The notes under the pieces: generated by a model | Database searches by the model: none | Told to the model about the DNA's origin: nothing | What the model saw: the letters and a program-made list of their open reading frames with translations, nothing else | Position numbers and translations under genes: made by a program | Source of the DNA: Promethearchaeota archaeon | Lineage (GTDB): Archaea; Asgardarchaeota; Heimdallarchaeia; Hodarchaeales; Hodarchaeaceae | Direction of reading: 5' to 3' | Length of the DNA: 64,000 bases | Assembly (NCBI GenBank): GCA_048938105.1 | Contig: JBHLMN010000022.1 | Location: 32,001 to 96,000, forward strand | Shown: one piece after another, positions 1 through 59,350 of the stretch | Layout: every line of letters starts with the position of its first letter | Position numbering within the stretch: position 1 is the stretch's first letter

Positions 1-63
1 ACTCACTCCTCCTTGGTATTGTATAGGTGCTTATGACAATTCGATATAGTTCAAATCATCAAA
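1..63 (+). repeat. Array boundary site, copy 1 (left end cut by window; about 8 bp deleted in core)
   Basis: actcactcctccttggtattgtataggtgcttat matches the site consensus; right flank gacaattcgatatagttcaaatcatcaaa matches the right flank of the copy ending at 4527 (gaaaattcgagagagttcaaatcatcaaa). Confidence 0.8.
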
Positions 64-197
64 GCTTGTTACGCATTAAACGCCAATGAAGAAACAGTAC
101 CAATGTATCAACAAAGATCAAAGCTTTACTTATAGGAGGAGATTCTCAAAAAATTCATTCTTGATAGCTGAAATATGGTTCTTAAATCTAAGATTTT

Positions 198-1412
198 TTA
201 ATAAACCAACGAATCATGGGAGTAAGCAAAGCACACAGGATCTAAGTCTTGAGTAAACAGAAACAATTGCGTAACTCGACCCTCATATCCTGAAAGAGGC
301 CCATATCTTAGAGAATATTGAAACTTTCCTCTAAAAATCCAATAGAATGGAGCCGAGAAATAGTAAAAAGGGGTCTCATTCAATTTACCAACATAAAAGG
401 GTTTTGCTGGCTCCACAGAACCAAGTGAATAGAGTGATCCATTTTGCCACCAACCAAGGTAGTAAAAATCAACAAAGGATTTTTGTATAGTTGTATAAAG
501 AAAAGAAAAAGTTGAGATATTGATAGTAGATAAGGAATTATTAGTCTGAACAACTGAGACTCTCCACTCAAGAGTGACAGACCCCTGTTTTTGATCGTTT
601 GCGTGGGAGAGAAAATAGTTCAATGTGTCATTATTCATATAATTAGTGAGATTATCTCTAGCTTTCAGTGAATCATTACCAATAAAGTCCACGATTGAGC
701 TATTCTCGATATGTTTCAATACGAAAGATGCTTGTGAGTTGGAAGCTTCCCGAGTAATGGAAATTCGCCTATTAACTATATACTCATTCTTCAATAGATA
801 AGGTAAAACAAACCATCCAAACAATACTAGAATAACAAAAACAAAGCTCACCATTCGTATATCCTTCACACGTCTTTTAAACCGTTGAATATCAGATTGT
901 GACATCTTTTGTAGTATTTGACCAAGTCGAACACTTGTCATCAAAGCGATCAAGGGTTCTAGACAGAAAACTAAAACATCAAGAAAGACTACATTAATTT
1001 GGACTATATTTAAAAGGAGAATTGGGAAAGAGAAGACTATTCTAGGAAGAATTAACAGCCCGATGAGGAGAAATAACCACCAACACGTCACACCAACAAA
1101 AAGGTTTGCGATTAACCTATATAGGCTATTTTCTTGGATTGTTATATCCGAGAGAAGAATAGGAGGAAATAACGTGAAAAGAATAGCCCAAATTACCCCA
1201 GAAATAAAAAACCAGAGAAATAAACGTAAAGCTTGAATTTCTAAAGTCACTTTGACCTCTGAACCAAACGATCTCCACTTCTTACTCCACCCAATAGCAA
1301 TCAGTAAACAAAACAACAGAAGGAGAAATACTACAACTAATGGCTTGGGAATGGCCCATTCGAAATTTCCTCCAATAGTAGAAGTTATTGTGTACACACG
1401 AAGCATTTTCAT
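198..1412 (-). CDS. Hypothetical multi-pass membrane protein with C-terminal soluble domain
   Basis: 404-aa ORF; about 5 hydrophobic segments in the N-terminal half. Confidence 0.75.
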   Translation of the reverse strand: MKMLRVYTITSTIGGNFEWAIPKPLVVVFLLLLFCLLIAIGWSKKWRSFGSEVKVTLEIQALRLFLWFFISGVIWAILFTLFPPILLSDITIQENSLYRLIANLFVGVTCWWLFLLIGLLILPRIVFSFPILLLNIVQINVVFLDVLVFCLEPLIALMTSVRLGQILQKMSQSDIQRFKRRVKDIRMVSFVFVILVLFGWFVLPYLLKNEYIVNRRISITREASNSQASFVLKHIENSSIVDFIGNDSLKARDNLTNYMNNDTLNYFLSHANDQKQGSVTLEWRVSVVQTNNSLSTINISTFSFLYTTIQKSFVDFYYLGWWQNGSLYSLGSVEPAKPFYVGKLNETPFYYFSAPFYWIFRGKFQYSLRYGPLSGYEGRVTQLFLFTQDLDPVCFAYSHDSLVY

Positions 1413-1434
1413 TCCATAACTACTGGTATCGTGG

Positions 1435-1460
1435 TATTACTCATGAATTTCAATAGAATT
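1435..1460 (+). repeat. Array boundary site, copy 2 (right half only)
   Basis: tattactcatgaatttcaatagaatt resembles ttactcatgaatatttcaattgaaatt (copy ending 25880); sits exactly between two genes. Confidence 0.6.
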
Positions 1461-2063
1461 TTATACAACTATAATTTCAAATGGAAGCTGAATTGGTGAC
1501 ACATCATCAGAACTGAACGTAAGACATATTCCCGTGGGTAGCGAATCAAGCAAAAAATGATACTTATCAGGGGGAAGAACAGGGATCCAATGATTGACTT
1601 CAAAAGTGGAATTAGTTGGCATTTCCCTCGTGGTTCCTAAATGGATAATATGGATCCCACCAAGCTCATCTCCTTTGTGAAACTCATATACTGGATAACA
1701 GATTTCAGGCCGCTCTCTAAATGGATGCCAAACAACAATATCAGAACTATTACAGATTGCTACCCACCTGAACCACCCAGGATTATAATTAGTGACATTG
1801 TGGTCAGTTAAACAGGTTAGTTGAACAGTTAATGTCATATTTATCCCTATTGTATAAATTGTACGATCGAGAGACGCAGTAAAATTCCATCGTTCAAGAA
1901 AGCCAAGCTCAGAGGGATCTGGAGATGAATTGTTTGAATTAACAATTTCAGTATTATTGGTATTATCATTAGGGTTCATTAGAGTAATAACAATGTATGC
2001 GAAGATAATTGAACAAGTCATAACACCTAAAACTGTAAAAATAAAGACCTTTTTGGATAACAT
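1461..2063 (-). CDS. Hypothetical N-terminally anchored/secreted protein
   Basis: 200-aa ORF; N-terminal TM helix, Asn/Ser-rich linker, beta-rich domain. Confidence 0.75.
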   Translation of the reverse strand: MLSKKVFIFTVLGVMTCSIIFAYIVITLMNPNDNTNNTEIVNSNNSSPDPSELGFLERWNFTASLDRTIYTIGINMTLTVQLTCLTDHNVTNYNPGWFRWVAICNSSDIVVWHPFRERPEICYPVYEFHKGDELGGIHIIHLGTTREMPTNSTFEVNHWIPVLPPDKYHFLLDSLPTGICLTFSSDDVSPIQLPFEIIVV

Positions 2064-2096
2064 TGAGTTATATCAACTCTTCTACTTGTTTAGATG

Positions 2097-4368: not shown

Positions 4369-4527
4369 AAGACATTAATACTGGAACGATCAACAATGAG
4401 ATGAATGTGTGCGATGTGGAAAGAGGGGGTTGTTTTACCCATGTGAGGGGTGTCTCCAAAGGAAAAATCGAGTTGATGAAATCATTCCTCCTAGATATTC
4501 CTCAGATGCTTATTGACTCATGAAAAT
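4369..4527 (+). repeat. ATPase 5' remnant plus boundary site, copy 3
   Basis: Aligns to ~51362-51519; ends gcttattgactcatgaaaat. Confidence 0.9.
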
Positions 4528-7791: not shown

Positions 7792-8990
7792 TTATTTATT
7801 CTTTCTTCTAATTAACAAAAATAAACTAAAGAAAATAGCTATCATAAATGAAAATCCTGGAGTATCATCTGTAGTGTGAATTGTTGTCGTATCTGTTGAA
7901 TCATCTATTGTGTAACCAGTTGTTATAGAATTTACTAATGGAAAATGATCTATTCCACTTCCATTCCCACTAATCTCATAAGGAATGTTCCAAATGGTTC
8001 CATCATTGGCTGCACTTGGGTAGTTACTGATATAATCATCACCCCAATAATTCCCTGTGGTGCCATTATCCCAATGATTATCTATGCAATCATCTTTTTC
8101 AAAGGCTTGACCATTCGTATTTCCATAAATATCGTTAAAATAAATCGTATTTTTGTTACTCGAATGCTCTAAATAGATTCCATACTTATTATAACTTGCA
8201 GTATTACCAGAAAGAGTGTTATTGCTCGAAGAAGACAGCCAGATTCCAAAGTCATTCTTATTTACAGTATTCTTGATAAGTGTGTTGTAGTTGTTCGAAG
8301 AAGACAGCTGGATTCCATACTCATTGTAATTTGCAGTATTCCTGGAAAGTGTGTTGTTGTTGCTCGAATAATACAGGTAGATTCCACGACTATTGTTATT
8401 TGCCGTGTTCCTGGAAAGTGTGTTGTTGCTCGAAAGCCCCAAAAAGATTCCAAGACTATTGTTATATGCCGTATTCTTTGAAAGCGTGTTGTTACTCGAA
8501 GTAGATAGATAGATTCCATAAATAGAGTTATTACTTACATTATTCCCTGAAAGCGTGTTTTTGCTCGAAAGCCCCAACCAGATTCCAAGATTATTGTTAT
8601 TTGCAGTATTATTGCTGACATTTACATTTGTGGCATTAAATAAGTGAATTCCATCCATACCTTCAACTTTGCAATTCTGGATGATAAGATAGGCATCTGT
8701 GGATCGAATCTCAATCCCATGCGCAGTACTGGCCTCAATAAAAAGATTTTCAATAATATAAGGGGAAGATTTGGTACCATCCCCACTTAGTCCTTCATCC
8801 TCGATAAAGGTTGCCAATGCGTCATTCCCATCAATGAAAATCGGAGCATGTTTGACCGCAGAATTTAAATTCTCTTCAATGCTAGAATTAATTTCATGAA
8901 TTCTGATACGGTCAGAAGGCCAACTATTCAATCCCAATAACAGAACTGTTAGAATGGTTATAAATAAGAATTTAATTTTTTTAATTTCAA
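7792..8990 (-). CDS. NosD beta-helix surface protein with PGF-type C-terminal anchor; signal peptide apparently frameshifted in an A7 tract
   Basis: ORF 7792-8937 is a close paralog of 35886-37145; KFLFITILTVLLLGL is in frame upstream but the TTG at 8990 is out of frame by one base; C-terminus TPGFSFMIAIFFSLFLLIRRKNK. Confidence 0.8.
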
Positions 8991-13423: not shown

Positions 13424-13484
13424 TGAATCAACCCCTTTTTTGTATCGGTGTTTAATTACTCATGAAAATCCGAATTGAAATCAG
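13424..13484 (+). repeat. Array boundary site, copy 4 (degenerate left part)
   Basis: tgtatcggtgtttaattactcatgaaaatccgaattgaaatcag; left variant resembles copy 1, right flank resembles copies ending 25880 and 59315. Confidence 0.75.
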
Positions 13485-22099: not shown

Positions 22100-24055
22100 T
22101 TATTTTCTTCTCTTGACAATTTCTTTATGTAGTATTAAAGCTGCAGTTATTAGTACAATGATAATCAACCCTCCAATAACATTACTAGGATAATTATTGG
22201 CATCTTTTCTTGTGCCACTGACACTTGTACTAGTAGATTCCCCCAAGCTTGTGATAATAGTCGTATAACGAGAATTATTGATTGTGAATGTATTGTCAGA
22301 TGTATCAACATTCCAGATCCCTTCAGCACAGCTCACATTCACTTTGATCAAATAGTTGGTACCATCCGCTACAGTAGTAGTATCCCAGACATACCAGGTA
22401 CTCGTATAACGCGATCCTAGCGTGACCCATGTAATCCCACTATCGAACGAATAATAAACGGAATAACTTACTGAATGACCCCACGAATCAATACAATCTG
22501 TCCATAGAATCATGATTCGGCCTGAAAATGTCTCTCCACCATTAGGATACAACACTGTCAGACCAACTATAAAGTGATTTTGAGGCCTATTCGAAGATGT
22601 GAGCGGATAGATATCTTGGTTATTCACTGAACCAGCAATATCATAGGGTTCATCTACAATACCATCAGTATCATTATCTGGGGTTGTCCAGTCATTCCAA
22701 AAGTTAAAGGTGAAAATGTTACTTGAGCCATTATCTGCTGCTTGAGACCCCGTGGCAATGTTTCCAGAAAAATCATTGAATAGGACTCTATTATTATAAG
22801 AACCACCTTGAAGAGAAACCCCATATCCATAATTATTGGTAATGGTATTGTTGGATATTATACCATTATCAGAGGATTCAAAGTTTATTCCGTAGCCGCT
22901 GTTATTCGCAATGATATTGCTAGACAAGGTACAACTGTCAGAGTCAGATATGCTAATTCCACTATCATCGTTGTTGGTAACATTATTATCGAACAGAGAA
23001 TTTTCAGTAGAAGATCTCAGAGAAAATCCAGTTTTATTGTTGCTAGCGATAGTATTGCCAGAAAATACATTACCATCTGAAAGATAAACTAGAATTCCAG
23101 CCCTGTTGTTATTACTGATGGTATTACCAGATAAAATGTTAGAAAATGAAAGATCAAGACGAATTCCGTCCTCTTTGTTATTGACAACGGTATTGTTAGA
23201 GATTCTAGCTGTAGAGGTGGCTAGACTAATTCCAGTTTCGTTGTTGTGAGCGACAATATTTTCAGATATAGCAGCATTATCAGTGTTAAAAAGGCTAATT
23301 CCAATTTCGTTGTTGTGAGCGACAATGTTTTCAGATAAAGCAGTATTATCAGAGTTAGAAAGAGTAATTCCATCATCACCGTTGTTGTTGATGATATTGG
23401 TGGATAAAAGATTGTTAAAAGAGTTAGAAAGGCTAATTCCTTCCCTTTGGTTATAGCTAATAGTATTATTGAACAAATGATTGTTAAAAGAGTCAGAAAG
23501 GTGAATTCCCTCCCAGTGGTTATTGTTAACAGTATTATTGAACAGAGTGATACGCCCAGAATGAAGAATGTCAATTCCTCTCACGTTGTTCTTGGTGATT
23601 ATATTATTGGATAATTGTCCATTTGTCACATTACCAAAATAGATACCATCTTGGCCCAGACAAAAAAAGCAGTTACTAATTCGAAAATGTATATTAGTAT
23701 CTTGAATATTTATCAAATTATTTTCAAAGGGGCCTGTAATATTAAGATTACAAATAAGAATAGGAGACGAGGGGGTGCCATTACCAGGCCAATTATTTAC
23801 TTTTGCTAGTGTAATGAAATGAGCATTCCCCTCAATCCAGATTGGAGAATGGGTTTTATATTGGGTTAAGACATACGAAGAGGTTCGAAGCTTGTTTACT
23901 GAAGCCGACCAGGCCAATCCGCATACTTCAGATCCAGAATAATTCCTTGATCTATCGAAAAACCAATAATAAACTGTCACGGGGTAAATTAAGATTAAAC
24001 TGACAAGACAGAACATACTAATCAGCGCGAAACTAGACTTACTAGCTCTTCCCAT
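22100..24055 (-). CDS. NosD beta-helix surface protein with PNGGE Ig-like module and TM anchor (paralog of 55410-57110)
   Basis: Signal peptide, HSPIWIEGN..WPGNGT module, NosD repeats, PSNVIGGL-TM-basic tail. Confidence 0.9.
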   Translation of the reverse strand: MGRASKSSFALISMFCLVSLILIYPVTVYYWFFDRSRNYSGSEVCGLAWSASVNKLRTSSYVLTQYKTHSPIWIEGNAHFITLAKVNNWPGNGTPSSPILICNLNITGPFENNLINIQDTNIHFRISNCFFCLGQDGIYFGNVTNGQLSNNIITKNNVRGIDILHSGRITLFNNTVNNNHWEGIHLSDSFNNHLFNNTISYNQREGISLSNSFNNLLSTNIINNNGDDGITLSNSDNTALSENIVAHNNEIGISLFNTDNAAISENIVAHNNETGISLATSTARISNNTVVNNKEDGIRLDLSFSNILSGNTISNNNRAGILVYLSDGNVFSGNTIASNNKTGFSLRSSTENSLFDNNVTNNDDSGISISDSDSCTLSSNIIANNSGYGINFESSDNGIISNNTITNNYGYGVSLQGGSYNNRVLFNDFSGNIATGSQAADNGSSNIFTFNFWNDWTTPDNDTDGIVDEPYDIAGSVNNQDIYPLTSSNRPQNHFIVGLTVLYPNGGETFSGRIMILWTDCIDSWGHSVSYSVYYSFDSGITWVTLGSRYTSTWYVWDTTTVADGTNYLIKVNVSCAEGIWNVDTSDNTFTINNSRYTTIITSLGESTSTSVSGTRKDANNYPSNVIGGLIIIVLITAALILHKEIVKRRK

Positions 24056-35427: not shown

Positions 35428-35554
35428 AGAGGATTTTTTCGAAGTGGAAAGAGGGGGTCGTTTTACTCATGGGAGGGGCTTCTCCAAGGAAGATTTTGAT
35501 ATGAGGACTCACTCCTCCTAAATTTTCCTCAGATGCTTATTGATTCATGAAAAT
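35428..35554 (+). repeat. ATPase 5' remnant plus boundary site, copy 7
   Basis: ttcgaagtggaaagagggg...gactcactcctccta...cctcagatgcttattgattcatgaaaat. Confidence 0.92.
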
Positions 35555-35825
35555 TCAGAATGAAATTCATATATCGCCTTTTTTTCGTAATACCTCAATA
35601 GCTAAATCATGAAAAATGGTTTCAATAGATTTTCTCTCAGTTAGGTTGGACTCATAATACGAAACTCCTAATTCATTCGCTAAATTCTGGCCCTCTTCTG
35701 TTGTTACAGTTTCCGATTCAGTGATAAACCCCAGGATCGCAATCGGAACTGAAGATTCAGGAATTTGATGAACTAAATTTCTTATTCAAATCTTTAACGG
35801 CTTTGAACGATGCCCTATCATCATA
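35555..35825 (-). pseudogene. Longest small-GTPase C-terminal remnant
   Basis: DDRASFKAVKD (frameshift) ...VPIAILGFITESETVTTEEGQNLANELGVSYYESNLTERKSIETIFHDLAIEVL. Confidence 0.78.
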
Positions 35826-37145: not shown

Positions 37146-37342
37146 TTCCCCTTCCATAGTACAGCTAAGATCATAACGAAATTCTAGTAAGCTAGACATC
37201 TTCTATATATATATTTAGCTAGAGTTCGAGTTAATCATTTACATAGTTTCATAATCTGCAGAAACAATTCTGGGTAAATGAACATCAGAAGGGAGGAGAA
37301 CATAGAGTTAGGAACCGAAAAATATCTATTTGGGGTCATCAG

Positions 37343-37560
37343 TGGTAAGAATTTCTTGAATGGGATTAAAAAACATCTCTTGATAAGAAGCTCGTAATTG
37401 ACTCTGAAACGGACGGTGGGACAACTCCTAGAGGGAAATCTGCCCATTGATCGAAACGATACAACGGCGTTCGTCGCGTTTGGCTTTCAAGAGCTGACGT
37501 AATTGCTCATATTCATTCCGAGGGAAGCCCAAGAGGTTTGCAATGTCAAAGGGATTGAAT
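37343..37560 (-). pseudogene. ATPase 3'-end remnant fused directly to the boundary site
   Basis: Aligns to ~49287-49552 (tgacgtaattgctcatattcat exact); joined at gaat|gcttat, so ~1.95 kb of the gene is missing. Confidence 0.88.
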
Positions 37561-37580
37561 GCTTATTTACTCATGAAAAT
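37559..37580 (+). repeat. Array boundary site, copy 8
   Basis: atgcttatttactcatgaaaat, exact core. Confidence 0.92.
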
Positions 37581-42626: not shown

Positions 42627-42696
42627 TCATTCTTTGGTCAAAATTTCTCGAATGGGATCAAAATACAACTGTTGATAGGACTCACGTAATTGTTTC
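42627..42696 (-). pseudogene. ATPase extreme 3'-end remnant
   Basis: tctttggtcaaaatttctcgaatgggatcaaaatacaactgttgata aligns to ~49279-49348 including the stop position. Confidence 0.85.
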
Positions 42697-46846: not shown

Positions 46847-47536
46847 GTGGAATCAATTGTTTTAAAAGATGATAGAATGTCAGACAATGAGAAACATAAG
46901 CCTGAAGAAAAGGAAAAAAATAAAGAAAGAAAGAAAACTGATGAAAATAAATTTGAGGAGTTAAAATTTTTCATCCAGATATGGCAACATCACGACACGA
47001 TGTTTTGGAATAGATTCACAACCTTTATTGCTGCCGCCTCGATATTGATAACATTTTTAGGTGCAGTTGTTCTTTTCGGCATAAGTAATCAAAATCTAAG
47101 AAATGAAAACCTACTATCAACGCGAATATCAGCCATAATAGTTCTAATGGCGGGAGCTTTTGTGGTAATTACGATTTTTTGGTATTTCATGTTGAACCAC
47201 ATTTTTATATGGGTAGATTTTTACTTAAAAAAAGCTAGGGCTTCTCAAAAGGAACTTGGTATGAAAATACTTTTTAATAATAGTGAAGGGCCAATATTTC
47301 CTTTTCTAGCAAAAATTCCAAGTATTCGTATTATGGACTTTCTCTTTAGCTTTTTCTGTATATGTGGAATCTTGGTGGTAATTCAGCATTTTTTGATGGT
47401 TCATTTCTCTTCATGGTCAATTGATAATCCTGCAATATTCATTGGAATCATAGTTATTACACCAATCGGAACACTGGTAAGCCAACACTTGTTGAATCAG
47501 TGGCGTTCAAATAAAATTAAAGCATTTGAATTTTAA
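46847..47536 (+). CDS. Hypothetical four-TM membrane protein
   Basis: Charged N-terminus then 4 TM helices. Confidence 0.75.
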   Translation: MESIVLKDDRMSDNEKHKPEEKEKNKERKKTDENKFEELKFFIQIWQHHDTMFWNRFTTFIAAASILITFLGAVVLFGISNQNLRNENLLSTRISAIIVLMAGAFVVITIFWYFMLNHIFIWVDFYLKKARASQKELGMKILFNNSEGPIFPFLAKIPSIRIMDFLFSFFCICGILVVIQHFLMVHFSSWSIDNPAIFIGIIVITPIGTLVSQHLLNQWRSNKIKAFEF

Positions 47537-47620
47537 CCTCTGAGGATAGTTCAAATTCCTTTTTCTTTATTTTTCTAGGAAAACGTATCCCGTTTAACAT
47601 CAATGAATCATTATCAACAA

Positions 47621-48067
47621 CAGTATCCAAGCCTTTCTTGCGAAACCACCCATGTTCCAAAGGACTTATGTAGATGTGGATCGATTTCGGATCAAAAATG
47701 GCATACTTCAACGAAAAGGTTTCTTTGACATGCTGGAAGACGTTAATACTGGAACGATCAACATTAAGAGGAATGTGTGCAAAGTGGAAAGAGGGGATCG
47801 TTTTTCTCATGGGAGAGGCCTCTCCAGAGAAGAAATCACTAAGGTTACTCACTCCTCCTAGGTATGGAAAAAGCGCTTATTTACTCATGAAAATGATTTC
47901 ATCGTGAGATAAACCTTTTTTAAGGCTCAAAGAGCTATTAACCTGTAGTTGGGATTTGGTTCAAAAGGGAAACCACCTTGAGGTATAGTAAAGTGGTTCT
48001 CATTTTAATGCTTTTCATTTGTCTAGTTGTCTGTGGATTATCCCAAGAGCTTCCCTTTACCCCTGAA
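47621..48067 (+). repeat. 447-bp direct repeat of 51246-51692: ATPase 5' remnant, boundary site copy 9 (ends 47894) and signal-peptide fragment
   Basis: Constant offset of 3625 bp; ORF 47517-47852 shares SPM.K.IPSFHF.HIPLNVDRSSIN with the ATPase N-terminus. Confidence 0.95.
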
Positions 48068-49278: not shown

Positions 49279-51495
49279 TTATTCTTTGGTCAGAATTTCC
49301 TGAATGGGATCAAAATACAATTGTTGATAAGAGTCACGCAATTGTTTCTGAAATGAAAGATTAGATAATTCATCTAAATCCATAGACAAGTCAGGATCTA
49401 AGAGAAACTCATTAGTCTTCAAGAGGGAAATCTGACCGTTGACCGAAATGATACAGCGGCGTTCATCTTGTTTAGCTTTTAATAATTGACGTAATTGCTC
49501 ATATTCATCCTTTGGAATACCTAAGAGATTCGAAACCTCGAAAGGGTTGAATTTCGTGAAGAAAAGAGTCAACAGGCCAGTGTTTGTTAACATAGGTTGG
49601 TCAATAATAGGTTCCGTGCCAATAAAAATCATAGAAATGTCATATGCACGTAAGGTCCAAGGGCCACGTCCAATCATAGATTCAGGAGATTTCGAACGGA
49701 AATTCTTCGCAGGAGCGAGCTTTTGGATCTCATCCAACACGAAGACATTTTTCGGCAACGATTCTTCTTTGAAAGGAGCTCGAAAGGTACGAACATAATA
49801 ATATAAATTCTGAAAGACCACATTTAGAAAAATCTCCCGCCCGCTTTGATCCTCCATAGCCTCAAAGGCAGAGAGGTCAATAATGGCATTCCGATCAAGG
49901 AGGTTGGCAACCTCAAAGGTGGTCTTTGATACCGTGAAACACCGCCCCGTATTACCAAAGAAGAGTTTTTCGACACGATTCAAGATGCCTGTCGCAGTAT
50001 TCTCAAGATAAGCCCCCTTCATTCCCAACTCATCGGGATTCTCCAGATAGAAAAGAAACCTCCGAAAATCCCCCTGATCTTTCACTGTTTGAATAACAGT
50101 AAGATGAAGCATCCGCCGCATCTGGGGAGATACAGCATCCTCATTATCAAAAATATGTTCTAGAATGGAGACCGCAAATTGGATATGGTCTTCAACAGGG
50201 ATAAGAGGTTGACCTGCATCATTCAGAGGAATTTGGAAGATATTAATCCCCCAAGGGAAGGAGGCAGACCCAGGCTTTAAGTAGAGAAAATCATCACAAA
50301 AAGTCCTAACAGGGGAAAGATACTCCCCTTTCGGATCAAAAATGAGAAATTTGACCCCTTTTTGGTGAAATTCGTTGATTAAACCATAAATGAAACGACT
50401 TTTGCCCTCACCTGTCATACCAAAAACAGCCATGTGCCGACAGAGGTCTTTCCCGTCAATTAATAAAGGAACATTAGAGGTTTTGCCGCTAATAATGGGA
50501 ATCCCAAGGTTGATGGCACGTTGAGGAGAAGTTTCACTTATACCCGTGGATAAGGTGTAATCAGATTTGTTGGGGACGAGAGTATACCCCTCGTGGGAGA
50601 ATTGCCGCTGAGGAGGAGCAATGAAACTCATTAGAGACGAACCATCCAAAGTAATGGGGGACACCAGCTTTCTGGAAACACACAACTTCCTGAGGGAAGG
50701 AAAACGTCTGAAAAAAGTGGGATAAGAGCGAGCTTTAAGTCCCTTAGAGACAAATAAGACAGATAAACGATTAAGCTTGGCTTTTAACAACTCAGGACTG
50801 GTTTCCACAACTAAAATCCGAGGAGAGAAGCGAAAACAACCAGCTTCCTCCATGATGTTCATTCGCTGAGGTTGGAAACGGCGTTCGACTTTACCCTGTT
50901 GAATATCAAAACGGACATGACTCAGATGCCGTTCCTGATCATCATCAGATTGGAACTTCTTGGGGACTTTGATGGATTTGAAGACAAATTGAAGAAAAGC
51001 AAATTGAGGATTGTCCGTCAAAATTTCAAGCAGATGATCAGTGAAACCATCAGCTGTGGTAAAAGGAGGTTCTGCAGTGCCCTCTAAACCAAGGATTCCT
51101 CCACAGAAAAAAGTAGGGCCATCTGTACTAACCTGAAAAGACTTAGTCAAAAGGTCAAGAAGCACATGAATCGGGGTGGGTTCAATCTTGTGAAAGTCAG
51201 GATGTAAGCCCATGGCAATAGCAAACTGCTGAATGGTGGCGATACCAGTATCTAAGCTTTTCTTGCGAAACCACCCGCGTTCAAGGGGACACATGTGGAT
51301 GTGGACAGATTTTGGATCAAAAATGGTATACTCCAACGAAAAGGTTTCTTTGGCATGCTGGAAGATGTTAATACTAGACCGATCAACATTAAGAGGAATG
51401 TGTTCGAAGTGGAAAGAGGGGATCGCTTTGCTCATGGGTGAGGCCTCTCTAAGGGAAAAATCGAGTTGATGACTCACTCCTCCTAGGTATTGCAT
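49279..51495 (-). CDS. HerA/FtsK/VirB4-superfamily P-loop ATPase (DUF87-like); only intact copy in the window
   Basis: RHMAVFGMTGEGKS (Walker A), FLIFDPKGEY, VFVLDEIQKL (Walker B); visibly GC-richer than its neighbours. Confidence 0.88.
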   Translation of the reverse strand: MQYLGGVSHQLDFSLREASPMSKAIPSFHFEHIPLNVDRSSINIFQHAKETFSLEYTIFDPKSVHIHMCPLERGWFRKKSLDTGIATIQQFAIAMGLHPDFHKIEPTPIHVLLDLLTKSFQVSTDGPTFFCGGILGLEGTAEPPFTTADGFTDHLLEILTDNPQFAFLQFVFKSIKVPKKFQSDDDQERHLSHVRFDIQQGKVERRFQPQRMNIMEEAGCFRFSPRILVVETSPELLKAKLNRLSVLFVSKGLKARSYPTFFRRFPSLRKLCVSRKLVSPITLDGSSLMSFIAPPQRQFSHEGYTLVPNKSDYTLSTGISETSPQRAINLGIPIISGKTSNVPLLIDGKDLCRHMAVFGMTGEGKSRFIYGLINEFHQKGVKFLIFDPKGEYLSPVRTFCDDFLYLKPGSASFPWGINIFQIPLNDAGQPLIPVEDHIQFAVSILEHIFDNEDAVSPQMRRMLHLTVIQTVKDQGDFRRFLFYLENPDELGMKGAYLENTATGILNRVEKLFFGNTGRCFTVSKTTFEVANLLDRNAIIDLSAFEAMEDQSGREIFLNVVFQNLYYYVRTFRAPFKEESLPKNVFVLDEIQKLAPAKNFRSKSPESMIGRGPWTLRAYDISMIFIGTEPIIDQPMLTNTGLLTLFFTKFNPFEVSNLLGIPKDEYEQLRQLLKAKQDERRCIISVNGQISLLKTNEFLLDPDLSMDLDELSNLSFQKQLRDSYQQLYFDPIQEILTKE

Positions 51496-51519
51496 GAGTG
51501 CTTATTTACTCATGAAAAT
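51471..51519 (+). other. Array boundary site, copy 10 (reference copy; putative recombination site)
   Basis: CATGAGT(51493-51499)-GCTTATTT-ACTCATG(51508-51514); overlaps the first ATG of the ATPase ORF. Confidence 0.85.
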
Positions 51520-51602
51520 GATTTCATCGTGAGATAAACCTTTTTTAAGGCCCCAAGAGCTAAGACCAATAGTCTGGGATTTGGATCAAAAGGGAAACCA
51601 CA

Positions 51603-54600
51603 TTGAAATGGAGTACCACAGTTCTCATACTAATGCTTTTCATTTGGCTATTGGTCTGTGGAAAAAGCCAAGAGCTTTCATTCACCCCTGAAAATCAACT
51701 CTCTAATGGTCAGGCTGCTGATCCTCGGTTTGGTAATTCCAAAATACATCAATACACTCCCCATGATCCCATTATTATTACAAGAAATAGTGATTTTGCC
51801 TCCCAAGGATATCCTGGTTCAGGAACTATTGATGATCCATATTGGATTAAGGGATTTAATATTACTTCTCCTGATGGTGATTTAATTGCCATTAGTGATA
51901 CTACTGCATATTTCTGTATTGCTAACAACTATCTCAATGGATTATCCACAGCGTGGGGAGGTATCGTCCTGAACAACGTTATTAACGGAATAATCGAAGA
52001 CAATCTCGTGTTAAACCATGAATATTTAGGAATAGTGACTTATTCCTCATCCAATATTGTTATAGTTAACAATATTGCTTTCAATAATGGTTTGAACGGA
52101 ATTCGACTTGAAATGGAATCAAATAATAACCTACTTGAAAACAATACTGTTCTGGATAACAAAGCAGATGGGATTTGGATGGGAATTTCATGTAACTATA
52201 ATAGGATTATCAATAATACGGTCTATGCTAACATTGGGATTGGAATCTATTTTGGTTTGGAAGATTTTTCATATACTGGGTGTAGTGATAGCTTCATTTT
52301 CCGTAATTTTATTTACAATAACAGCTATGGCATAAAATTCGAGTCTTCAGATAATAACATAATCATTGGTAATAAAATTTCCAATAATACTCATCATGCC
52401 ATTTATCTTGACGCTACGTCTGATAGTAACAGAATAGCAATTAATAATTTTTTTAACAATAATCTAGGGGAGCAGTCTCAAGCTTATGACGATGGAGCTG
52501 CCAATGTAATTTTTGCAAATCATTGGGACGACTGGATCACACCAGATGACGATGGAGATGGGATTGTCGACGCCCCCTACAATATCAGTGGTCTATCAAC
52601 AACACAAGATGGATTTGCACATGTATCTGCTATCATACCGCACAGCGACATTTCTATTGATGGAGATGCGATGTTTCATGCTACTGCGGCTGCCGAAAAT
52701 TGGCCTGGGAACGGAACCTTGTCAAATCCCTATATCATTGAGAGACTTATCATGATTGACATAAGGAATCGGACATTGATTGAAATTGCCAACACAAGCA
52801 TCCATTTTCAAATAAGAGACAGCTTACCTTGGGGAGGATCTATCGTTTTCTCTAAGGTTTCACATGGAATAATTCACAATAATACTATGGTTCGGAGTGG
52901 GATAGCCATTTATTCCTCCAGAAATTGTACCGTGTCAGATAATTTAGTAACTGGTGACTCAGGAGACGGAATACACCTCCTAAACTCCAATCACACATCC
53001 ATTCTTAGTAATCAAGTGTTCAATAATCAAGGTCAGGGAATTTCCATTGACACCTCTTGGGATAGCACCATCTCTGGAAATACTGTAAACAACAACAACG
53101 AAGACGGAATTCGCTTTAAGGATTCTACAGCCATTATTATTTCTAACAACACGGTTTCCCAAAACGGGGTTGGAATTTATCTTGGGAGTTCTAATAATAG
53201 CACTATTTCTAACAATATAGTCACCGACAACAAACACAATGGAATTTTTCTTGAGGATTCATCTAATAGCGCTATTTCCAACAATACAATCACTGGTTCT
53301 CCGTGGAGTGGAATTCGGCTATTAAATTCTAGTGAAAGTACCTTGGGAAATAATTCGATCACCGAATGTAGTGATGGAATTTCGGTTGATGAGTCGGAAA
53401 CACTCACCCTGACCAATAATATGGTCACTAGCAACAGTGCGGATGGAATTGACCTTTTTTATTCAGGGAATAGCATCCTATCGGGGAATATGGTCTCTAA
53501 TAATGGTGGTAATGGATTTAATATTTTTGATTCAGAGACCAGTGTTCTGACTGCCAATACAGCCTCTAATAACAATGACCTTGGAATTTTTCTTAGAGAT
53601 TCTACAGACATTACCCTTTCCAACAATACAATCAAGAGCAACAGCGGTGGAATTTTTCTTTGGTATTCTGGGAATAACACACTTGTGAGCAACACTATCA
53701 CAAACAATGGAAACATAGGAATAATCCTTGCTACTTCCAAAAACAATACGATTTTAGATAATATTTTGGTAAATAATGATCTTTTCATCGGGCATGCCGA
53801 AATTAATTGGGATATGCATGTGACATCTCCTACTCTAACTGATTATTTTCAAGCTGATGTAATGAACAATTCTATAAACGGGAAACCGCTCGTATATTGG
53901 CAACATGCTGCAGGTGGAACAATACCAGCTGGAGCTGCCCAGGTCATTCTGGTGAACTGTACGGCAGTAACAGTGGCGAATCAAGATCTTTCAAATGTCT
54001 TGTTTGGTTTACAAACGATTTCCAGCTCATGCGTGTCCATCTTAAACAATGTCATAGTTAATACTAGTATATCTGGAATCTATCTTCTAGATTCTATTAA
54101 TAGCACGATTGCTGATAATAAAATTACACACAACTATGGACTTGGAATTTTTCTTCAGGATTCTAATTCTAGCGCTATTTCCAACAATACGGTCACCAAC
54201 AACAGACACAATGGAATTTTTCTTGAGGATTCTAACAATAGCAATAGTTCAAAGAATGTTGTCACCGACAATGATGGTCATGGATTTTATCTTGGGAATT
54301 CTAAGAATTGTATGATTTCATCAAACATTATTTCTTACAATCGTGGAAAGGGAGTCGAAGTTAATGATTCTACCAACATCATCATTTCCAGCAATACCAT
54401 CTCTAGTAACGACAATGGGATTCATCTTGAGAATTCATGCAATAGCGTTATCTCTGACAATACAATAAACTACAATGAGGAAGACGGAATTCTATTTAGG
54501 GCCTCGGAGAATAGCACTATTTCCAACAATACGGTATCCAATAACATGAAAGGAATTATTCTTGGGGCCTCTGGGAATTGTGTTATTTATAACAATACAA

Positions 54601-55190
54601 TCACTGACCATGATTTTCAGGGAATCGAAATTCATCGTTCTACAGCTATTACTATTTCCAACAATATAGTCTCCAACAACGACAACAATGGAATTATCCT
54701 TGAGAATTCATCCAATAGCGTTATTTCTGACAATACAATAAACTACAATAGCGGAAACGGAATTGTATTTTGGTACGATGAAATCTTAATTTCTAAAAAT
54801 AACTTAATTTCTCATAATACAGTGTCTAACAATAGTGGATATGGTATTTTTATAGGTGGATCATCTAAGTTTTGCAATGTATCGTGGAACATTTTTAATG
54901 GGAATAATCGTGAGGGAACATCTCAAGCTAAAGACGATGGAAGAAATAATACCTTTGAACATAATTACTGGGACGATTGGACGGAACCCGACACGGACGG
55001 GGATGGGGTTGTTGATACACCTTATGATATTGATGGTGATGCAGAGAATCAAGATATGTACCCACGCGTTTCTCCAAATCCTGTTTCCACCCCATTTTTG
55101 AGCGAAAATATCCTCATGGGGTTAGTTTTTCTCGTACTCATCCTTCCTGTCCTGGGGATCTTAATTCGCAAGCAGAAGAGAAATTTTTGA
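51603..55190 (+). CDS. Large NosD/CASH beta-helix surface protein with TM anchor
   Basis: Signal peptide, two HxxIxI/GxGTxxNPY modules, many beta-helix repeats, TPFL-TM-RKQKR tail. Confidence 0.92.
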   Translation: MKWSTTVLILMLFIWLLVCGKSQELSFTPENQLSNGQAADPRFGNSKIHQYTPHDPIIITRNSDFASQGYPGSGTIDDPYWIKGFNITSPDGDLIAISDTTAYFCIANNYLNGLSTAWGGIVLNNVINGIIEDNLVLNHEYLGIVTYSSSNIVIVNNIAFNNGLNGIRLEMESNNNLLENNTVLDNKADGIWMGISCNYNRIINNTVYANIGIGIYFGLEDFSYTGCSDSFIFRNFIYNNSYGIKFESSDNNIIIGNKISNNTHHAIYLDATSDSNRIAINNFFNNNLGEQSQAYDDGAANVIFANHWDDWITPDDDGDGIVDAPYNISGLSTTQDGFAHVSAIIPHSDISIDGDAMFHATAAAENWPGNGTLSNPYIIERLIMIDIRNRTLIEIANTSIHFQIRDSLPWGGSIVFSKVSHGIIHNNTMVRSGIAIYSSRNCTVSDNLVTGDSGDGIHLLNSNHTSILSNQVFNNQGQGISIDTSWDSTISGNTVNNNNEDGIRFKDSTAIIISNNTVSQNGVGIYLGSSNNSTISNNIVTDNKHNGIFLEDSSNSAISNNTITGSPWSGIRLLNSSESTLGNNSITECSDGISVDESETLTLTNNMVTSNSADGIDLFYSGNSILSGNMVSNNGGNGFNIFDSETSVLTANTASNNNDLGIFLRDSTDITLSNNTIKSNSGGIFLWYSGNNTLVSNTITNNGNIGIILATSKNNTILDNILVNNDLFIGHAEINWDMHVTSPTLTDYFQADVMNNSINGKPLVYWQHAAGGTIPAGAAQVILVNCTAVTVANQDLSNVLFGLQTISSSCVSILNNVIVNTSISGIYLLDSINSTIADNKITHNYGLGIFLQDSNSSAISNNTVTNNRHNGIFLEDSNNSNSSKNVVTDNDGHGFYLGNSKNCMISSNIISYNRGKGVEVNDSTNIIISSNTISSNDNGIHLENSCNSVISDNTINYNEEDGILFRASENSTISNNTVSNNMKGIILGASGNCVIYNNTITDHDFQGIEIHRSTAITISNNIVSNNDNNGIILENSSNSVISDNTINYNSGNGIVFWYDEILISKNNLISHNTVSNNSGYGIFIGGSSKFCNVSWNIFNGNNREGTSQAKDDGRNNTFEHNYWDDWTEPDTDGDGVVDTPYDIDGDAENQDMYPRVSPNPVSTPFLSENILMGLVFLVLILPVLGILIRKQKRNF

Positions 55191-55326: not shown

Positions 55327-55375
55327 GACTCACTCCTCCTAGGTATTGAAAAAGCGCTTATTTACTCATGAAAAT
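55327..55375 (+). repeat. Array boundary site, copy 11
   Basis: gactcactcctcctaggtattgaaaaagcgcttatttactcatgaaaat. Confidence 0.93.
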
Positions 55376-55409: not shown

Positions 55410-57110
55410 TCATTCTTTTCTTTTAATAATTCCTTTTTGTAGTATTAGAGCGACAGTTATTAGTACAGTGATAATCAATCCGCCTATAACATTACCAGGA
55501 AAACCATTGGCATTTGTTCTAGTACTAGGAGTACTATTGACACTTGTACTAGTAGATTCCACCAAGGTTGTGGTAATAGTTGTATAACCAAAATTAATGA
55601 TTGTGAATGTATTATCAGATGTATCAGTATTCCAGACCCCATCAGCACAGCTCGCGTTTACTTTGATCAAATAGTTGGTGCCATTAGGTACTGTGGTGAT
55701 ATCCCATATATACATGGTTCCAGTAAAACCTGACTCCAAGGTAACCCACGATGTCCCCCCATCAGCGGAAAAAGAGACAGAATACGTGATTGAATGAGCC
55801 CAGGAATCAACACCATCTGTCCAAAAAATCGCGATTTCGTCTGAAAATGTCTCTTCACCATTAGGATGCGATACTGTTAGACCGAATATAAAGTGATTTT
55901 GAGGTAGATTCGAGGACGTGAGCGGATAGATATCTTGGTTATTCACTGAACCAGCAATAGGATAGGATTCATCTACAATACCATCCGTATCATTATCTGG
56001 GGTTGTCCAGTCACTCCAATAGTTAAACACGAAAATATTATTCGAACCATTATCAACTGCTTGAGATCCCGTATCAATGTTTCCAGAGAACTCATTGAAT
56101 AGAACTCTGTTATTAACAGAGCCATCTCGAAGTGAAACTCCATACCTATAGTTGTTGGTGAGAGTATTGTTGGATATCATACTGTTCTCAGAGTATTTAA
56201 AGCTAATTCCGTCCCCATTGTTGTCGTTAATACTATTGTCAGAGAGAATACAATTCTCAGAAGTACGAAGGGAAACTCCAGATTGATTGTTATTGTTGAT
56301 AGTATTGCCAGATAAAGTGTTATTAAATGAGGCAGTAAGACGAATTCCGTATTTAGTATTATTGGTAACGACATTGTCAGAGATGATACTATCCTCAGAG
56401 GAGCTGAGCCAAATTCCATTTCCACTGTTGTCGGTGACAACATTGTTGGTTAAAGTAGAATTCCCAGAAGTGATGAGACGAATTCCAAATCTACTGCTGT
56501 TGACAACAATATTATTGAACAGAGTAATACTTCTAGAGTAAAGAATCTCAATTCCTCCCAAACAATTGTTGGTAATTATATTATTAGATAATTGTCCATT
56601 AGTCACATTTTCTAGATAAATTCCAAATTCTCCTTGGTTTATTATACAGTTACTGATTCGAAAATATAAATTAGTATCCAGAATAGTTATCATGTTATAA
56701 TCATAGGAGCCAGAAATATTAAAATCATCAATGAGAATCGGAGACGAGGGGGTTCCATTACCAGGCCAATTATTCTTACTTGCTTGGGCAATGAAAAGAG
56801 AATCCCCCTCTATATAGATATAAGGATATTGTTTGGTTTCATTTATCACGTCTGCTTCGAATTTATCACGCAATTCCTGATTGAAACTCAAGATCTCTTG
56901 AGAAGAATCACTAAGGATCCAAGGACATGCTTCTATATCATCCTGGGTTTGACCAGGAAATTGAGATGCTAGATCATTTGAATAAAGGCATTTGGATTGA
57001 ACCATTATAGGACTGACCAAAAGGCTAAAAATACTCATGAATAGTACAAAATACAAAATGAATAGTTTTAACAAGGAGTATATAATTTGAATTTTATGAA
57101 ACTTCATCAT
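55410..57110 (-). CDS. NosD beta-helix surface protein with Ig-like module and PGNVIGGL-TM anchor (paralog of 22100-24055)
   Basis: Long near-identical blocks with the 22100 protein, fewer beta-helix turns. Confidence 0.9.
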   Translation of the reverse strand: MMKFHKIQIIYSLLKLFILYFVLFMSIFSLLVSPIMVQSKCLYSNDLASQFPGQTQDDIEACPWILSDSSQEILSFNQELRDKFEADVINETKQYPYIYIEGDSLFIAQASKNNWPGNGTPSSPILIDDFNISGSYDYNMITILDTNLYFRISNCIINQGEFGIYLENVTNGQLSNNIITNNCLGGIEILYSRSITLFNNIVVNSSRFGIRLITSGNSTLTNNVVTDNSGNGIWLSSSEDSIISDNVVTNNTKYGIRLTASFNNTLSGNTINNNNQSGVSLRTSENCILSDNSINDNNGDGISFKYSENSMISNNTLTNNYRYGVSLRDGSVNNRVLFNEFSGNIDTGSQAVDNGSNNIFVFNYWSDWTTPDNDTDGIVDESYPIAGSVNNQDIYPLTSSNLPQNHFIFGLTVSHPNGEETFSDEIAIFWTDGVDSWAHSITYSVSFSADGGTSWVTLESGFTGTMYIWDITTVPNGTNYLIKVNASCADGVWNTDTSDNTFTIINFGYTTITTTLVESTSTSVNSTPSTRTNANGFPGNVIGGLIITVLITVALILQKGIIKRKE

Positions 57111-57316: not shown

Positions 57317-57395
57317 CTATTAGCTTTCACTTATACTTTACGAGACCAATTTAGGACAAAAACCTGAACAAGAATACAAGATGGGTGTATTCGGA
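57317..57395 (+). repeat. 79-bp repeat (partner 33707-33785)
   Basis: Gap-free alignment with 33707-33785. Confidence 0.85.
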
Positions 57396-57397
57396 TT

Positions 57398-57549
57398 GAA
57401 ATTTACAGGTCGCCTGTGTTTCGTAAAACCTCAATCGATAAATCATGCAAAATTGTTTCGATAGTTTTTCTGTCAGTTGGTGTAGACTCAAAATACAGAA
57501 CTCTCAACTCATCCGCTAATTCAGGCCCTCGTCAGTTGTTACAGTTTCC
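57398..57549 (-). pseudogene. Small-GTPase 3' remnant
   Basis: acctcaatcgataaatcatg...gatagtttttctgtcagt...gttgttacagtttcc colinear with ~35562-35714. Confidence 0.75.
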
Positions 57550-57575
57550 CTTACATGAATTATTATTAAGACGGA

Positions 57576-58922
57576 TTAAATCCTTAAGTTGTAATGGAGG
57601 GTGTCTTGTAAATCTTGGATTTCTGCAATTGGAACTTGATTCACATGTGTCAGGGGATTATCGGTTAGAATAACATATTTTAAAGCGGGACAGGAGTCTA
57701 GCGGGGAGAGATCAATGGTTTCCAACGAATTCCTATTAAAGAATAACTCCCATAACGACGGATGATTCCTGAACGGGGATAGATCAATGGAGGTAATAGC
57801 ATTATCACCCAACCTGAGTTCACGAAATTTAGGACAGTGCTGCAAGGGGGAAAGGTCTATGGTCTGAAAACGATTGTGGCTCAAGTCGAGATCTTTGAAT
57901 TCAGGTAACTGTGCCAACGGGGAAAGGTCAAGAGCGGTTAATTCATTGTCTTTCAATGAAATTTCTTCTAGATGGTCACAATTTCTGAGGGGGGAGAGGT
58001 CAAGACTTTGAAGTCCGTTATTAAATATAGTTATATCTTCTAGACTGTTTTTCGGAGGCATGGGGGGTAACACAACGGATGTCAAGGTTCTTAAAGAAAG
58101 AATTCCAATATATCTTAGGACAGGGAGGTGAGCTAATGGGGTCAAGTCAAGAGTCTGAAAATCGGTTCCTTCCGATAATTCGAAGTGGGTCAATTTCTGA
58201 CAATATCGAATCAGGTCAAAACAGACCATATCAATGATGTTCAAGTTTTCAGGGATCTTGAATTCGGTGATATCTCGTGTTTCCTTGAGTGGTTCCAAGG
58301 AGATGTACGGAAAGTCAAGGAATACATTCTTAATGAATGTTTCTTCAATGATCCGTGTAGGTGGGAAGAATCTTTCCATGAACAGAGTACACGGGACATA
58401 AGCATTCCCTGTTTCTTCATCTCGAATGACCCGATAATCAGTAAATGTTGAGATAAGGCGCGCCTGATCAATAATCTCAGATAATGTCAGGTCAATCTTC
58501 TCTGGTATTTCGGGATAAATAATCAATTGACTCTTTCGCCCAAAGACATACCCGCTATATTTTATTTCTAATTCTTCTGGATCAAAGATTGTTTCTGAGA
58601 TTGGCATCCAAACAGGTCTTTCTAGAACTTCGTTGATAGAGATCCGTTCATAGTTTTTCTTCATCTTTTCTTTACTAATCGTGGTTAAGGGACAAAGATA
58701 AAATACTAGATCCTGGTCACGGTATTCTAACACGGTATACAGATAATTCGTGGGATCGCCGAGATTCACGTTGAGTTCTTGGGCGACTAATGTGGCAATG
58801 ATAGAATCATCTTTGTCATACCGCAATTCACGCCTTGTTTGAGCAATCTTCTCGCTTATTTCCGCCTTCGAGAGTTGTTTCTGTTCGTGGATCTTCCTGA
58901 TTACCTGTTCCTTACTCTGCAT
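57576..58922 (-). CDS. LRR protein with N-terminal helical domain resembling the archaeal RPA/DUF2240 N-terminus
   Basis: Repeated N.L..LDLSPL..C..L; N-terminus EQVIRKIHEQKQLSKAEISEKI...IATLVAQELNVNL. Confidence 0.85.
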   Translation of the reverse strand: MQSKEQVIRKIHEQKQLSKAEISEKIAQTRRELRYDKDDSIIATLVAQELNVNLGDPTNYLYTVLEYRDQDLVFYLCPLTTISKEKMKKNYERISINEVLERPVWMPISETIFDPEELEIKYSGYVFGRKSQLIIYPEIPEKIDLTLSEIIDQARLISTFTDYRVIRDEETGNAYVPCTLFMERFFPPTRIIEETFIKNVFLDFPYISLEPLKETRDITEFKIPENLNIIDMVCFDLIRYCQKLTHFELSEGTDFQTLDLTPLAHLPVLRYIGILSLRTLTSVVLPPMPPKNSLEDITIFNNGLQSLDLSPLRNCDHLEEISLKDNELTALDLSPLAQLPEFKDLDLSHNRFQTIDLSPLQHCPKFRELRLGDNAITSIDLSPFRNHPSLWELFFNRNSLETIDLSPLDSCPALKYVILTDNPLTHVNQVPIAEIQDLQDTLHYNLRI

Positions 58923-59189
58923 CCCGAGCCCTCATGCTACGCGTTTTCCACCCATACCTGCTTGAGTTGAATATATTTTTGATCATTCTGATGATTGATC
59001 TCAACTTCTCTTACCTCCATAAATACCCTTTGTTTTTATGTCTGCTATGGTGATTTGTCTCTATCACGAATCAGTTCAGTCATCCAATAGTATAAGGGGC
59101 CAAAGAACATCCCAAAAAGTCCGACCACGAAAAGTACAGGGGAGACTAAGGTAAGGTCAACTCCATAAACGAATTCCCAATAAGATCGC

Positions 59190-59315
59190 GAGGAATGTGT
59201 TCGAAGTGGAAAGAGGGAGTCGTTTTACTCATGGGAGGGGTCTCTCCAAGGAAAATTCTACGATGTAGCTTACTCCTCCTAGGTATTGCAGAGGTTCTTA
59301 TTTACTCCTGAAAAT
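59190..59315 (+). repeat. ATPase 5' remnant plus boundary site, copy 12
   Basis: gaggaatgtgttcgaagtggaaagaggg exact to the ATPase; ends cttatttactcctgaaaat. Confidence 0.92.
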
Positions 59316-59350
59316 TTCAATTGAAATTCAGATCCCACCAAATATAGTTT

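Follow-up and report, generated by a model that had tools for sequence, protein, structure and literature searches.

Short discontinuous gene-conversion tracts are known from Sulfolobus genetics, and orphan arrays of displaced gene ends adjoin Rhs/contact-dependent inhibition (CDI) toxin genes. Other described systems with which a repeated site between blocks of genes can be compared are the archaeal promoter with its TFB recognition element (BRE), TATA box and leader, tandem islands flanked by direct repeats of a target gene (attachment, or att, sites in transfer RNA (tRNA) genes or gene ends), and the recombination sites of integrons (attC) and of the loxP, FRT and dif type. Here, such a site was analyzed in a Heimdall-group Asgard genome (5.85 Mb, 35% GC, 65 contigs, estimated contamination of 7.25%). 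The window, i.e., the whole stretch of 64,000 nucleotides (nt) that was analyzed, covers positions 32001-96000 of the 108-kb contig C37 and contains repeated direct copies of a 20-nt core. An earlier note had reported that the left and right flanks of this site are reassorted between copies and had read this as strand exchange at the site. The analysis identified the core as the upstream end of a module in front of a HerA-like gene, which belongs to a gene family conserved in Heimdall-group Asgard archaea. The site is probably the promoter/leader of this HerA-like ATPase gene, and its relic copies were probably shuffled by homology-driven recombination rather than at a single, specialized point of crossover.

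For the 11-mer CTCATGAAAAT (up to one mismatch), the window gave 13 matches, every one of them on the plus strand, against 4.8 expected, and 13 was reached in none of 100 shuffles; the adjoining 20-mer ACTCACTCCTCCTAGGTATT (up to three mismatches) was found eight times against an expectation of zero. Of the 16 near-matches to the 20-nt core (up to three mismatches) that were found genome-wide, 11 were on C37, each of them on the minus strand. The C37 total rose to 12 when the damaged copy at window position 1, with a 6-nt deletion in its core, was added. Two C37 copies sit just past the window end, at window-equivalent positions 64003 and 65834. In the window itself, one gene is intact and 11 direct copies or relics are truncated. 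C37 as a whole has a single intact HerA gene, a single intact GTPase gene and at least 13 other junction copies or relics, all in direct orientation. The copies are 62–92% identical to one another, and each is set among unique genes. Degenerate copies at ~33439-33458 and 57389 (a GTPase relic with no core after it) had been absent from the earlier list. The sole clear copy outside C37 is a diverged module with a 12-codon coding start on contig C63 (104945-105060). Copies are cited below by either of two positions in the same core (4517/4527, 13459/13469, 25871/25881, 35544/35554, 37570/37580, 47884/47894, 51509/51519, 55365/55375, and 59305/59315). Module coordinates (+n or −n) are counted along the minus strand from the core start, and the right flank is the upstream side.

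On the minus strand, the module consists of the 20-nt core ATTTTCATGAGTAAATAAGC, a 10-nt spacer (L1), the 18-nt block TACCTAGGAGGAGTGAGT (P2), a ∼20-nt segment (V2), and a 3′ part, CCTTGGAGAG..CCCCTCCC, with a Shine-Dalgarno-like run, followed by ATG and the conserved coding start MSKTxPSFHFEHIPLNVDRSSIN. Only copy 51519 continues into a full gene. The encoded protein of 718 amino acids (aa) is an ATPase with the Pfam DUF87/HerA central domain (E = 2.4e-17), and a tblastn search showed its gene to be the only full-length HerA gene on C37. The parts of the intact copy are as follows:

49279-51435, minus strand: intact HerA/DUF87-type ATPase gene, 718 aa (Pfam DUF87, homologues, genome tblastn)
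51436-51519, minus strand: promoter/leader module of the intact gene (read directly)
51500-51519, minus strand: core ATTTTCATGAGTAAATAAGC
51490-51499, minus strand: L1
51472-51489, minus strand: block TACCTAGGAGGAGTGAGT
51452-51471, minus strand: V2
51436-51451, minus strand: GGAG-type leader end

A total of 72 homologues of the ATPase were found, and those with a named source were labelled Heimdallarchaeota, Hodarchaeales, Promethearchaeota or Thorarchaeota. Comparison with PADLOC and PDB sequences gave weak HerA-type matches alone (mad8, E = 2.6e-10; 8j4u, E = 9e-4), from which no defence or transfer system was assignable. Among 40 related genomes sampled, eight genomes of the same genus matched the module, at one or two places each, and most of these sites, along with those on other public contigs, precede HerA-like coding starts or their 5′ relics. 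The elements kept across the relatives are (G)AATTTTCATGAGTAAATAAG, a variable 10–11 nt, AATA(C/A)CTAGGAGGAG, another variable segment, a GGAG-type run, and ATG. The spacing between core and ATG, obtained by combining core positions with tblastn starts, was 83–85 nt in 11 of 13 loci, including the gene in the window, the exceptions being 56 and 67 nt. L1 was found to vary from species to species and the core and P2 to be kept, which is the behavior of a cis-regulatory element with unconstrained spacers. The module thus keeps both its position and its sequence upstream of orthologous start codons, as a promoter/leader does.

Within the core, TAAATAAG resembles a TATA octamer and may serve as one, and GAATTTTCATGAG before it is a candidate BRE or operator-like half-palindrome. 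By standard archaeal promoter geometry, transcription would start inside the P2 block. When a TATA consensus was sought by eye upstream of the tRNA genes of the genome, of which just 14 were located, no pattern stood out. In most of the right flanks, another half-palindrome resembling TGAA(A/T)TTCA is present 12–14 nt upstream of the core's own GAATTTTCA (window positions 51520-51545, 47895-47920, 25882-25900, 59316-59335, and 35555-35580). This doubling of half-palindromes suggests a repeated operator for a putative dimeric regulator. The type C flank contains an inverted, degenerate copy of the core that points at a divergent beta-helix gene.

The main type of right flank proved to be the 3′ end of a Ras-like GTPase gene. 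An intact gene for a 173-aa Ras-family GTPase (Pfam Ras, E = 7.8e-25) lies directly upstream of copy 65834, with its stop codon within the core. Relics of its 3′ end form the right flanks of 35554 and 37580 and stand alone at 33484-33627 and 57421-57612; in the longer relics, the gene ends 22 nt before the core. The proximal 14–18 nt of this flank recur in 25881, 59315, 13469 and the copy of a relative, with different DNA beyond them in each. Relics of the HerA 3′ end are present at 37338-37580, where they are joined straight to the core, and at 42630-42695. The GTPase ends and HerA 3′ relics around the core therefore show that the ancestral unit comprised a Ras-like GTPase gene, a short gap, the core and the HerA gene, all on the minus strand, and that the copies are collapsed units. 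The same arrangement of GTPase (89.5% identical), core and decayed HerA gene was observed in a genome of the same genus. The relics and partial copies in the window are as follows:

1-41, minus strand: relic cut by the window edge; core minus 6 nt, type A right flank, start codon now ATA and left of the window
4369-4527, minus strand: relic of module plus 24 codons, then a stop; type A right flank, L1 that of 35544, V2 resembling that of 51509
13437-13469, minus strand: relic of core plus L1 only; L1 9/10 to copy 1, homology to ~+33
25773-25881, minus strand: relic of module with a decayed start (AGG for ATG); L1 that of the intact copy, V2 resembling that of 35544, right flank the GTPase-proximal piece out to −45
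33439-33627, minus strand: GTPase 3′ relic (aa 120–167, 33484-33627), then a degenerate core (~33439-33458)
35428-35770, minus strand: GTPase 3′ end (aa 106–171, 35573-35770), 22-nt gap, module and 11 codons
37338-37685, minus strand: collapsed unit; GTPase 3′ relic (aa 143–166) plus core plus 6 nt of L1 (37555-37580) fused to the HerA 3′ end, the HerA part being aa 624–718 (37338-37580 region) with an internal stop
42630-42695, minus strand: isolated HerA 3′ relic, aa 697–718, 91% identical, convergent with an RDD-family gene
47517-47894, minus strand: relic of module plus 63 conserved codons in a 97-aa open reading frame (ORF); 448 nt at 84% identity to the intact copy except in L1 and V2
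55327-55375, minus strand: relic of core, L1 and P2; clear homology lost at around +48 to +65; 500 nt of paralogy with copy 65834 (outside the window)
57389-57612, minus strand: GTPase 3′ relic (57421-57612); homology stops at most 2 nt from the expected core start, with no core after it
59186-59315, minus strand: relic of module plus 14 codons, ∼300 nt upstream of a leucine-rich repeat (LRR) gene
63979-64000, minus strand: edge of a further copy with its core start at 64003, outside the window; type C right flank, cut at ~+24

Internal deletions have whittled each C37 unit to a different depth. Homology ends at ~+24 in 64003, +26 in 37580, +33 in 13469, and +48 to +65 in 55375 and 65834, and reaches ~+90 to +108 in 25881, ~+115 in 35554, ~+127 in 59315, +158 in 4527, and +273 in 47894. 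In the copy at 1, it runs to ~+99 past the window edge, and the start codon is decayed. The relic peptides are 63–91% identical to the resident gene, which makes them about as distant from it as the orthologues of other assemblies, and some are closer to these orthologues. Hence, the units are old paralogues or imports and not the product of one recent amplification. Direct 5′ relics near an intact gene were found in at least four related assemblies, indicating that the habit of forming relics is lineage-wide. The truncated HerA 5′ relics of the related assemblies L022 (3517-3964, 9981-12220), L026 (6730-6843, 452-2605), L002 and L012 lie in direct orientation a few kb from an intact copy, and in one of these assemblies a decayed HerA gene comes after an intact GTPase. 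The identity of the repeat as a transposon end or miniature inverted-repeat transposable element was dropped because the repeat runs on into the beginning of a coding sequence and, in one copy, a full gene is present.

The flank pairings from which the earlier note had started were borne out. The strings it quoted were all recovered in place, the left pairs and the right groups are discordant, and the TCAATAAG variant does go with the spacer shared by 4517 and 35544. On the left, L1 pairs 4517 with 35544 (10/10), 25871 with 51509 (10/10), 47884 with 55365 (9/10), and 1 with 13459 (9/10); the other L1 pairs match at just 2–8 of 10 positions. On the right, copies 1 and 4517 share 22 nt; 47884, 51509 and 64003 share 173–358 nt; 35544, 37570 and 65834 share 103–268 nt; and 25871 and 59305 share 18 nt mutually and 18–45 nt with 35544. 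V2 groups the copies yet again, as 4517/51509 (18/21), 35544/25871 (16/20), 47884/1 (16/20), and 55365/65834 (identical). The nearest neighbours of a copy thus change block by block, from right flank (R) to L1, P2, V2 and coding start. A closed four-gamete cycle between flank and L1 is formed by 4517, 1, 35544 and 13459, provided that the flank of 13459 is taken as the GTPase-proximal kind (∼12/15 positions by eye). A second cycle, between L1 and V2, is formed by 4517, 35544, 25871 and 51509, and it places breakpoints in or beside the 18-nt P2 block, 30–50 nt from the core.

Tests for recombination were carried out on seven copies. Of 496 informative site pairs, 233 were incompatible, and the Hudson-Kaplan minimum (Rm) was 11 events across 130 nt. 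Permutation of the pairwise homoplasy index (PHI) type gave p = 0.003–0.004 with all seven copies (k = 5 or 8) and 0.02–0.07 without the damaged copy at 1, nearby sites being more compatible than distant ones. Adjacent segments conflict and incompatibility grows with distance, as in a gene-converting paralogous family. The intact copy provided the clearest individual case. Copies 51509 and 47884 are 84% identical over 448 nt and mismatch at 14% of positions outside the spacers, against 5/10 in L1 (p = 0.008) and 11/20 in V2 (binomial p = 2.6e-5), and the L1 of 51509 is identical to that of 25871 and its V2 matches that of 4517 at 18/21. A 3SEQ-like scan showed 51509 to be 47884-like, with ten consecutive 4517-like sites from +49 to +68 (triplet p = 0.0015). 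This V2 patch is the best supported, with ends at +46/+49 and +68/+75. The copies are therefore mosaic, in view of the PHI result and the V2 patch, and recombination is the best explanation for this, so that this part of the earlier interpretation is supported; exchange of the recombinase type found no support. The further claim that exchange maps to the core was not supported either, since breakpoints also fall between L1 and V2 and around V2, with a minimum of 11 events over 130 nt. For right flank types without detectable similarity, a switch at the module edge is true by definition and is no mapped crossover. Breakpoints scattered away from the core are what the earlier note had itself named as its refutation.

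The mechanism that we favor would run as follows. GTPase-HerA units would have been duplicated or imported and then collapsed by deletion. The right flank, L1 and V2 lie between short conserved blocks, and patches of ∼10–25 nt may have been exchanged through gene conversion between copies, through allelic recombination of diverged alleles before their deposition, or through both. The blocks would owe their conservation to a role as promoter and leader elements, and in the exchange they would act solely as passive homology bounding the patches.

Two sets of observations weigh against this interpretation. The first concerns exchange itself. The conserved blocks of 18–20 nt are short substrates for homologous exchange. 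The best 3SEQ-like values (p = 0.001–0.0015) are not significant after Bonferroni correction over 120 triplets. The tree-incongruence test was without power, as the left-part tree is a star with 0/4 inner branches supported, and approximately unbiased (AU) tests on this star did not reject grouping by right flank (p = 0.15–0.48). Moreover, the right flank types share no detectable similarity, so that no common right tree can be built. The divergence of ∼20% also means that part of the incompatibility is plain homoplasy. The triplet values, the unresolved tree with its AU tests and the divergence would suit an alternative without any exchange between copies, in which segmental duplication, independent indels and point mutation produced the array and the short shared strings are retained ancestry or parallel change. 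As local duplication predicts, neighbours share flank types (1/4517; 33443/35544/37570; 47884/51509). However, two 10/10 and two 9/10 spacer matches join copies with unrelated flanks, four-gamete cycles close at two adjacent junctions, and the PHI incompatibility grows with distance. In addition, the pair that is 84% identical over 448 nt differs at 11/20 positions in V2, where a distant copy matches at 18/21. An origin without exchange is thus unlikely, though it retains a small share of the probability.

The second set concerns the place of the junctions. About 12 of 16 relics of the ∼2.8-kb unit keep the core, more than random sub-intervals would, a retention that is partly due to ascertainment, as it was the core that led to the copies. 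The flanks of types A, C and D, which are not homologous, are joined to the module no more than 3 nt from a common position at its edge, and precisely there one GTPase relic stops. In two places, a beta-helix gene stands between direct copies of the initial 25–49 nt of the module, 51519/55375 and 64003/65834 (63979 to 65834; the latter C37:96003-97834), and looks like an inserted or duplicated cassette. The bracketed NosD/beta-helix gene encodes 1195 aa in one place and 525 aa in the other, with the same leader and 3′ region in both. Such observations would suit a reading, in line with the strand exchange proposed in the earlier note, in which the core is a dedicated att-like site where a recombinase encoded elsewhere in the genome swaps or inserts blocks, the array being a cassette platform and the flank reassortment the trace left by strand exchange. 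All copies are direct and bound blocks of 2–12 kb, and relatives too have direct 5′ relics a few kb from the intact gene. A dyad with 7-bp arms and an 8-nt spacer (7-8-7) is complete in both arms (7/7) in 25871 and 51509, and a same-genus copy (L011) has the same dyad at 6/7 with its register shifted by one.

Against this, the dyad is lacking in 27 of 30 copies, orthologous ones included, with arm scores of 3–5/7 there, and single-strand folding of seven copies gave no shared hairpin, only differing structures (z from −3.3 to +2.2). When 64 ORFs from the whole of C37 (45 of them of at least 80 aa and inside the window) were scanned with Pfam, no integrase, resolvase or transposase family was found. 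The three matches to PF00589 in the genome, tyrosine recombinases, are on C14 (174285), C56 (201681) and C45 (377), none on C37; serine and other recombinase types were not searched genome-wide. The blocks between copies contain beta-helix/NosD, LRR, tetratricopeptide repeat (TPR), Kelch, FtsX/ABC, PIN, NYN and radical-SAM genes, and no mobile-element genes were found within them. Exchange is also required between L1 and V2 and further downstream, and in genomes with one or two copies the core stays at a fixed distance from the start codon, as a promoter would. A 12-nt deletion between two cgaATTT repeats, seen against the copy of a related genome, accounts for the type D flank. Elsewhere, upstream junctions lie at −14, −18, −45, ~−103 and ~−268, so that the clustering at zero is only partial. 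We therefore regard a dedicated site in this sense as unlikely. The site does not fit a tyrosine-recombinase core site (loxP/FRT/dif/att type), in that the arms are unconserved, no cognate gene was found on C37 and the crossover position is not single, nor an integron attC array, in that there is no conserved single-strand hairpin and no integrase was found on C37. As ARAGORN detected no tRNA or transfer-messenger RNA (tmRNA) gene in the window, there is no tRNA-type att target in it, and the whole window gave no match to Rfam at gathering thresholds.

The junction pattern could have been produced by homology insertion of the Campbell type, by tandem duplication followed by deletion, or by a trans-acting recombinase. 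Relics centred on the core, flanks joined within 3 nt, the twice-bracketed beta-helix gene and the relics of relatives leave some room for a broader proposal, namely that the GTPase/HerA junction is a recurrent targeted insertion point in Heimdall-group archaea. Blocks made up largely of surface-protein genes would then have been added or swapped at the core, by a recombinase in trans or another mechanism, with a copy of the core left each time. This would amount to a platform of the integron or additive-island kind that lacks an integrase encoded in cis. We consider this proposal as a whole improbable.

The possibility that the array is an artefact of assembly, with strain or species variants of one locus strung together in a metagenome contig, was also considered. 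Its basis would be a bin of 65 contigs with 7.25% contamination and a size of 5.85 Mb against 1.4–4.9 Mb in relatives, together with the presence of two HerA paralogues. In two relatives, the HerA gene borders a conserved block (two genes, ribosomal proteins L6 and S8, then a proteasome-activating ATPase), and the DNA upstream of the HerA gene is variable. In the genome studied here, this conserved ribosomal-protein synteny is held by a 70%-identical HerA paralogue without the core motif (C18:119000-130000), and the HerA gene of C37 is closer (82%) to the syntenic gene of the relatives. Given the contamination, the pair may reflect a mixed bin or an allele replacement. However, the copies are just 62–92% identical and sit among unique genes, patches of 10–20 nt are impossible from graph mis-joins, and the usual assembly k-mers are longer than the identical blocks of 18–20 nt. 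The independent assemblies of the relatives show the same kind of relic as well. An artefact is hence highly improbable.

Self-comparison of C37 gave 76 direct and nine inverted high-scoring segment pairs at 65–94% identity. Neighbouring copies of the module tend to share their flank type, a pattern consistent with segmental duplication on a local scale, followed by the exchange of short patches between copies further apart. Direct repeats at 92–93% identity were also observed off the site, at 2096-2652/7198-7753 and 18515-18739/25484-25708, and imply that recent local duplication is general in the region. Several beta-helix/NosD genes (8137-8632, 22811-23425, 36209-36681, 53035-54734, and 56130-56471) contain runs of 66–69-nt (22–23 aa) repeats and are mutually paralogous at 65–84% identity. 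The gene at 33844-35349 contains repeats of ∼150–190 nt with the motif DMWLVKTD..NG..EWNQ.

In a full-text literature search, neither relic arrays of this type nor the ATPase were found to have been described for Heimdall-group genomes. Among the passages of Wu et al. (2022; PMC8813620) that a term search reached, neither was found. The process, i.e., duplication, collapse and short-patch exchange, is of a known kind; for the array itself, no prior description was found. The locus is a 66-kb Asgard stretch, rich in beta-helix, LRR, TPR and Kelch genes, that is organized around at least 14 direct relics of one gene junction, and it forms a concrete, datable record of how flexible DNA grows and decays in the closest archaeal relatives of eukaryotes. 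It also provides a clearly delimited candidate promoter/operator motif for a HerA-like ATPase that is conserved but uncharacterized. Its main value is corrective, as a look-alike of a recombinase site is probably better explained as a conserved promoter serving as passive homology. Were the minority reading of a dedicated platform true, it would represent a new cassette platform in Asgard archaea.

Compared with the known systems, the site resembles integron attC and loxP, FRT or dif sites in being repeated in one orientation between blocks and in the 7-8-7 dyad of two copies. In contrast to these, there is no IntI-type gene nearby and no conserved hairpin or dyad, the blocks are multi-gene and bidirectional, and the promoter site is kept in genomes with one or two copies. 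Tandem islands with direct repeats of a target gene share with it the gene-end repeats at block edges, the single intact gene and the diverged relic alleles. However, no integrase and no mobile-element genes were found here, the intact gene has relics to either side of it, the depth of truncation ranges from +24 to +273, and exchange occurred at more than one position. As in the Rhs/CDI orphan arrays, diverged direct fragments lie near an intact copy, each with a short conserved stretch usable as homology in a subsequent replacement; unlike in these arrays, the fragments are 5′ ends with a promoter and not 3′ tips with immunity genes, and no toxin or immunity function is indicated. With the archaeal BRE/TATA promoter and leader, the module shares an AT-rich octamer after a short conserved element, a variable spacer of ∼10 nt, a conserved block in the initiation region and a fixed distance to the start codon across orthologues. 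It departs from the usual promoter in having been left behind more than 12 times without its gene, and its start site and factor binding are inferred. Ectopic gene conversion among paralogous repeats differs in that the copies here are mostly dead relics with homology blocks of 18–20 nt, and the shuffling may partly or wholly predate their arrival. It is nevertheless matched by the mosaic copies, the patches of 10–25 nt between conserved blocks, the donors on the same contig and the greater compatibility of near sites than of far ones.

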